Source: a virus
Lineage: Duplodnaviria > Heunggongvirae > Uroviricota > Caudoviricetes
Reading direction: 5' to 3' (one strand)
DNA length: 19,760 nucleotides
IMG/VR virus record: IMGVR_UViG_2740892274_000002
Below, in pieces: positions 18,414-18,660 of this stretch (position 1 is the first letter of the stretch; each line of letters opens with the position of its first letter). The position numbers were made by a program, and so were the translations under genes. The notes under the pieces were generated by a model. It saw nothing but the letters and a program-made list of their open reading frames with translations, was not told where the DNA came from and made no database searches.

Positions 18414-18660
18414 TGTTCATTCCACGGACAAAAACAGAGAAAGGAAACGACAGAGGCCAAAAAGCCCGTTTTCAGCACCTGTCGTTTCCTTTCTTTTCAG
18501 GGGGTGTTTTAAATAAAAACATTAGGTTACGGCGAAGAAGAACGGAAACGCCTTAAACCGGAAAATTGTCATAAATAGCGAAAACCCGCGCGCCTTCCGC
18601 CCCGTAACCTGTCGGATCGCCGGAAAGGACCCGCAAAATGATAATAATTATCATCTACAT
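18414..18660. other. cos packaging site: cosB with terminase R-element repeats, cosN, and a flanking 8-1-8 palindrome (possible cosQ region)
   Basis: Reverse complement of 18414-18602 aligns base-for-base with my recollection of the lambda left end, with scattered substitutions. Three copies of a CGTTTCC(T/G)TT-type motif in both orientations (18437-18448, 18483-18494, 18541-18550). The 12-nt cohesive-end equivalent is at 18591-18602. Palindrome ATGATAAT-A-ATTATCAT at 18638-18654. Confidence 0.8.

Follow-up and report, generated by a model that had tools for sequence, protein, structure and literature searches.

Genes and cos elements in the window

The stretch of DNA analysed here, referred to as the window, is a 19,760-nucleotide caudoviricete sequence (IMG/VR record IMGVR_UViG_2740892274_000002) that represents, on its minus strand, the late-gene arm of a lambda-type prophage. 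Lambda-like lengths were found for the open reading frames of Nu1, A, W, B, the head and tail genes, H (853 amino acids) and I, and J is truncated by the left edge of the window. A plus-strand ORF of 535 amino acids (751-2358) lies opposite the tail-tip gene J as annotated in related genomes and is most likely a spurious antisense ORF.

Table 1. Elements of the cos site and the terminase genes, in window coordinates
Feature	Position	Strand	Details
cosN cohesive-end sequence	18591..18602	-	GGGCGGAAGGCG; aligns base for base to lambda bp 1-12; predicted product a 12-nt 5' overhang
Conserved left half of cosN, bp 1-6	18597..18602	-	GGGCGG; same in lambda and N15
Variable right half of cosN, bp 7-12	18591..18596	-	AAGGCG; about 10 other alleles in the same slot in IMG/VR
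CG dinucleotide 5' of the top-strand nick (N1)	18603..18604	-	Matches lambda; highly conserved (PMC4669245)
CG dinucleotide 3' of the cohesive end, at the bottom-strand nick (N2)	18589..18590	-	Matches lambda (PMC4669245)
cosQ-like heptamer GGGTCCT	18626..18632	-	-30 to -24 from the top-strand nick; identical to lambda, with the same spacing
cosB R3, TerS-binding site, bp 50-65	18538..18553	-	AGGCGTTTCCGTTCTT; identical to lambda by sequence comparison
cosB region (R3, I1, R2, R1) up to the Nu1 start codon	18414..18553	-	Approximate extent
Nu1 (TerS), 181 aa	17868..18413	-	178/181 identical to lambda Nu1 (98%); K48R, A75T, L132I
A (TerL, the nuclease that nicks cosN), 641 aa	15968..17893	-	637/641 identical to lambda gpA (99.4%)

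The elements that mark a lambda-like cos site are all in place (Table 1): the left half GGGCGG, the CG pairs, the heptamer at its proper spacing, R3, and Nu1 and A adjacent. The CG pairs beside both nicks are the same as in lambda, the site reading ...TTACG/GGGCGGAAGGCG/CGCGGG... The heptamer GGGTCCT is presumably cosQ. As in lambda, the layout is cosQ-cosN-cosB, and the spacings, bp 1-6, the CG pairs, GGGTCCT and R3 (placed at bp 50-65 in PMC9026076) are identical. There are no indels between cosN and Nu1, and cosB from bp 50 to 190 carries seven scattered substitutions relative to lambda. The first-pass annotation had described cosB as differing from lambda only by scattered single substitutions, and this was borne out, with changes at bp 35, 71, 73, 78, 97, 102, 134 and 137.

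The cohesive end differs from that of lambda at five positions

The 12-mer GGGCGGAAGGCG is present as a single copy in the window (0 chance matches expected), where the minus strand reads ...CCGACAGGTTACG GGGCGGAAGGCG CGCGGGTTTTCGCTATTTATGA... around cosN, with GGTTACG on one side and CGCGGGTTTTCGC on the other. Both the sequence and the flanks that had been reported for 18591-18602 were found at exactly these coordinates. The lambda genome (NC_001416) starts with GGGCGGCGACCTCGCGGGTTTTCGC, and four lambda-type phages (PhiR49_1, Chlobot, 2H10 and DE3) read GGTTACG GGGCGGCGACCT CGCGGG. The lambda cohesive end quoted in the first-pass annotation was therefore correct, and an incorrect reference as the source of the difference is ruled out.

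At bp 7-12 the window has AAGGCG and lambda has CGACCT. These were first reported as six consecutive differences; the block change at bp 7-12 stands, but only five of the six positions differ from the canonical lambda cohesive end (bp 7, 8, 9, 10 and 12), C11 being common to both. By inspection, CGACCT does not give AAGGCG when it is reversed, complemented or both (AGGTCG), so an inversion or reverse-complement origin of the block was rejected. In an ungapped alignment to lambda extending from -120 to +200 around the top-strand nick, which needed no indels, there were 17 substitutions over the other 314 positions (5.4%). The probability of at least five changes falling in some 6-bp window, with all windows allowed for, is about 8e-4; the clustering of changes in cosN is real and goes beyond chance.

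The properties of the end as a duplex are little altered. G+C content is 10/12 in the cohesive ends of both the window and lambda, and nearest-neighbour dG37 is -17.8 kcal/mol for the window 12-mer against -18.2 kcal/mol for the lambda 12-mer. Self-annealing of the overhang should thus be unaffected, given the unchanged G+C content and the similar predicted stability. Rotational symmetry over the 16-bp site, scored by inspection, falls from 10/16 positions in lambda to 8/16 in the variant, in which the G2/C11 pair and both flanking pairs are still symmetric. Judged by its sequence, the site in the window is a different cohesive-end allele, yet a member of the lambda-like cos family.

Distribution of the AAGGCG allele

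It is extremely unlikely that the change is an assembly or sequencing artefact limited to six bases. The compactness of the change is all that speaks for it, whereas the same bases recur in hundreds of assemblies made independently, in different projects and with different technologies. A local assembly artefact, one of the explanations offered in the first-pass annotation, is refuted by the occurrence of an exact 32-mer in 14 IMG/VR contigs and of a 44-mer in 155 complete E. coli genomes. The 44-mer query was designed so that lambda-type sites could not seed a megablast match; 5426 complete E. coli genomes were covered, and the matches lay at 166 places, 150 of them chromosomal and 16 in plasmid records.

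The 44-mer also matched two phage records, YDC107_1 (Ravinvirus) and PhiR46_1. The GenBank host field of PhiR46_1 gives ECOR13, and the phage name apparently points to a different ECOR strain. In a later paper the phages of the PhiR panel are said to be temperate and are used in plaquing assays; from the host field together with that account, we infer that PhiR46_1 is a plaque-forming isolate.

The plasmid records carrying AAGGCG among the matches listed (H94, H97, H99-H101 and H112) were mostly about 46 kb, like both phage records. YDC107_1 is classed as Ravinvirus (N15-like), yet both it and PhiR46_1 have lambda-type cosB, Nu1 and gpA and not the simple cosB of N15. On the sequences, this would mean that a lambda packaging module was swapped into N15-like phage-plasmids.

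Among the matches listed, lambda-flanked IMG/VR sites comprised 114 with CGACCT, four with AAGGCG and one with CGACCG. In a complete census of IMG/VR sites in which bp 7 is not C, with AAGGCG counted between ACG GGGCGG and CGCGGGTTTTCGC, about 78 sites had AAGGCG. The remainder were AGACCT (two), TGACCT (two), GAGCGT (two), AAGCGT (one) and AAGGCT (one). Where bp 7 is C and bp 12 is not T, IMG/VR contained CAGGCG (four), CAGACG (three), CTGACG (one) and CGACCG (one). These allele counts indicate that bp 7-12 form a variable slot, of which AAGGCG is the main second allele.

A scan of GTDB species representatives with a 23-mer gave no match, and with a 20-mer it gave one Escherichia sp. genome plus chance matches in GC-rich genomes. 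No deposited phage record beginning at the GGGCGGAAGGCG cosN was found.

Flanks and linkage of the allele

AAGGCG was found next to several left flanks: the lambda type ...CAGGTTA, which is that of the window, and ...CAGGCTA, ...AACGTTA, ...CCTGCCA and ...GCTCTCA, and the GGTCCT core was present in every left-flank type. Right flanks carrying AAGGCG were of at least three types, namely lambda cosB, a cosB related to that of phage 21, and a third type, TATTTATGAGCATTTTAAGGGG... In the second type, the 21-like cosB and small terminase gene are 84% identical to phage 21. Confinement of the allele to one phage lineage was rejected, given the several left flanks, the three right-flank types and the occurrence on both chromosomes and plasmid records of about 46 kb. 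The canonical allele occurs on the same left flanks, in 67 IMG/VR contigs with CAGGCTA and six with CCTGCCA.

One substitution outside cosN follows the allele in part. A35C (window 18568, between cosN and R3; TATTTATGACAATTTT) was present at 11 of 86 AAGGCG loci and at none of about 170 canonical loci among those compared. This local linkage makes it a marker for a single sub-lineage of the variant cos.

In one IMG/VR contig (L152, 4520-5284) and 17 similar ones, the 21-related cosB and small terminase subunit (84% DNA identity) are joined to a lambda-type gpA. The TerS encoded beside the 21-like cosB appears to be a chimera whose N-terminus resembles that of phage 21 and whose C-terminus resembles that of lambda. 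The combination of 21-like cosB with lambda-type gpA in IMG/VR mostly carries AAGGCG (17 contigs), but the isolate IdasGreatGrand (L332), with the same 21-like cosB, has the canonical CGACCT.

The multi-base alleles CTGACG (L254), CAGACG (L250, L251 and L253) and CAGGCG (L255 and L257) lie for the most part beside right flanks of neither the lambda nor the 21-like type, and of these three only some CAGGCG sites have a lambda-type cosB beside them. AAGGCG may have originated in one of these lineages, CAGGCG being one step away from it.

The terminase does not covary with the cohesive end

In the window, gpA differs from that of lambda by T151S, D185E, L404R and T466I, each of which was found with both cosN alleles. 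When gpA was compared between 46 AAGGCG loci and 50 CGACCT loci, no column was fixed for one allele; the majority residue differed at only three columns, all three polymorphic in both classes. Since no gpA residue segregates with the allele and the four differences in the window occur with both, co-evolution of the terminase with the cosN allele was rejected. At one AAGGCG locus (L187), gpA is the same as lambda gpA at all 641 residues, and the gpA of PhiR46_1 is 99.5% identical to it. At loci where sufficient DNA followed, gpA had a long open frame in 46 of 49 AAGGCG and 49 of 60 canonical cases.

Natural variation within cosN's right half

Differences at bp 7-12 are common in nature: N15 and phiD326 differ from lambda at bp 9 and 12, and Gifsy-1 at bp 8, 9 and 11, with the CG pairs beside the nicks and cosQ conserved among natural variants (PMC4669245). 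The cohesive end of mEp213 and LLS is GGGCGGCGCGCT (PMC12315714). Mutations within cosN's left half, such as G2C, are harmful and the symmetric right-half mutations, such as C11G, are silent (Xu & Feiss 1991, via PMC4669245), a functional asymmetry that depends on cosB (Hang et al. 2001, via PMC4669245). The window site belongs with the right-half variants of N15, phiD326, Gifsy-1 and mEp213, as its changes are confined to bp 7-12 and the allele is recurrent. The block change at the nicking site, which had been flagged as standing out, is thus no anomaly, since bp 7-12 are the naturally variable part of cosN.

The cosN of N15 and phiD326 reads GGGCGGCGTCCG. Like that of the window, it is a natural right-half variant, and the two share G at bp 12. 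Unlike the window site, it has two differences from lambda, and its cutting by lambda TerL has been shown by experiment, with equal yields from cosN-lambda and cosN-N15 (PMC4669245). N15 also has a simple cosB and a TerL only 65% identical to that of lambda; in the window both are lambda's own. Gifsy-1 and mEp213/LLS are again natural right-half variants of lambda-like phages, but their bases differ, they have fewer changes, and their head and terminase modules have diverged.

Vahanian, Oh, Sippy and Feiss (2017, Virology 509:140) reportedly surveyed cosN in lambda-like phages, and other papers cite that work on the symmetry of cosN and on the cos of mEp213. A full-text literature search for GGGCGGAAGGCG returned no phage paper and one unrelated plant paper. 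This kind of variation is well described; the AAGGCG allele is new, or at least without demonstrable publication.

A probable working site with a natural cohesive-end allele

The cos of the window is very probably a working lambda-type site that carries a natural cohesive-end allele. TerS bound at R3 in cosB anchors TerL, and the two nicks are 12 bp apart (PMC4669245, PMC9026076). By analogy, Nu1 of the window would bind R3 and set gpA at a fixed distance. The nick would then fall between G(-1) and G1 in the top strand and between bp 12 and 13 in the bottom strand. The ends of virion DNA would be expected to be a 12-nt 5' overhang of GGGCGGAAGGCG and its complement, where lambda has GGGCGGCGACCT, both the nick positions and the overhang being predictions. 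The cosB anchor, and not a readout of bp 7-12, would place the bottom-strand nick. As TerS at cosB sets this nick, bp 7-12 may drift, and the right half would be free to vary provided that both ends of one genome match and anneal stably. Normal cutting with a 12-nt 5' overhang is suggested by the fit of the window site to the published pattern of right-half variation.

That the block change cripples the site, impairing the bottom-strand nick so that packaging is poor or fails and the site decays, is very unlikely. Five changes do lie beside N2 and symmetry falls by two positions, but the identical allele has persisted on several backgrounds beside intact terminase genes (155 genomes and about 78 IMG/VR contigs), which is not what one would expect of a dead site. 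One of the phage genomes that carry the allele also has a propagation host on its deposited record, the window is intact in the rest of its cos and throughout its structural module, and right-half mutations are nearly silent (PMC4669245). A cos that no longer cuts properly had been proposed in the first-pass annotation; this does not hold up, with bp 1-6, the CG pairs, cosQ, R3 and the spacing unchanged and right-half changes known to be mild (PMC4669245).

The five changes exceed every tested case, N15 having two and the mutants of Xu & Feiss being mostly single or double. Because of this, and because of the reduced symmetry, a modest loss of cutting efficiency is possible. The other proposal made at first pass, that of a different cohesive-end sequence, is supported by the hundreds of independent assemblies, the intact and near-identical terminase genes, and PhiR46_1. 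Taken on sequence comparison, the allele is a genuine, common and almost certainly functional right-half variant in an otherwise lambda-identical packaging module.

Spread of the allele and compatibility of ends

The occurrence of both alleles on the same flanks, with few close intermediates, suggests transfer of the allele between backgrounds and not repeated stepwise mutation. Spread among lambda-like phages was probably by recombination, or by packaging that started at one cos and ended at another. Packaging from one cos to another gives mismatched ends, which replication resolves into both alleles (Feiss et al. 2015). As the two alleles do not differ at bp 1-6 or bp 13-34, these two routes cannot be told apart by sequence.

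Canonical ends GGGCGGCGACCT pair with those of lambda, 434, 21 and phi80, but the overhang predicted for the window would pair with that of lambda over the first six bases only. The five mismatches leave this 6-bp left half paired, at about -7.9 kcal/mol, and a mismatch of 2 bp between ends already lowers the viable yield about fourfold (PMC4669245). For these reasons lambda and AAGGCG ends are probably incompatible for cyclisation.

The diverged end might then have been selected as a compatibility barcode, because chromosomes with one lambda and one AAGGCG end cannot cyclise, which would isolate a phage from co-resident lambda-like prophages or cos-bearing satellites with DNA that the same terminase can cut. 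In favour of such selection, no other non-canonical allele comes near AAGGCG in frequency, and close intermediates are few (four CAGGCG, one AAGGCT and two AGACCT). Several lambda-like cos regions may also share a genome, up to nine in one case; strain 582 has four cos-like places, only one of which is AAGGCG. Drift followed by recombinational spread would, however, produce the two-allele pattern just as readily, and the literature treats bp 7-12 as simply not under selection (PMC4669245). Selection of this kind is quite unlikely.

A broader proposal, which we regard as rather unlikely, is that the cohesive end is both a small mobile cassette and a compatibility tag, with terminase starting at one allele and ending at another and diverged alleles being favoured. 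Lambda-type terminases would not read bp 7-12, and mismatched ends would yield both alleles after replication, so that a cosN allele would be moved to new flanks with junctions exactly at the nicks. AAGGCG would be favoured as it blocks mixed-end cyclisation, giving partial isolation of co-resident prophages or of helper and satellite pairs. The presence of both alleles on the same left-flank and cosB types, together with the rarity of close intermediates, fits the cassette and tag proposal. The data fit recombination in the flanks plus drift just as well, and do not distinguish between them.

AAGGCG is one more natural case of the known functional asymmetry of cosN, and its wider biological weight is small. 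In practice, about 3% of complete E. coli genomes (155/5426) have a lambda-type prophage whose predicted sticky ends would not anneal to those of standard lambda. This affects the annotation of cos ends, the prediction of genome termini, compatibility in cosmid and in vitro packaging, and assays that anneal to the lambda cos overhang. The allele census, with one main second allele, at least three cosB types and no terminase covariation, may help the study of cohesive-end exchange.

A related prophage with an interrupted capsid gene

E. coli APEC E14033, which has an identical 44-mer across the site, carries a complete lambda-type prophage. Its genes include int, xis, exo/bet/gam, N, a LexA-family repressor at the cI position, cro, cII, replication genes, Q and lysis genes. 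The major capsid gene of this prophage (L331, 26144-38445; NZ_CP126948.1) is interrupted by an insertion of about 11 kb, which has its own integrase, DNA primase, SSB, Icd-like protein, major capsid and head-decoration genes. The insert looks like a capsid-encoding satellite, a PICI-like element, in the capsid gene of a helper-type prophage. The capsid gene of the window (11444-12496, minus strand) is intact.
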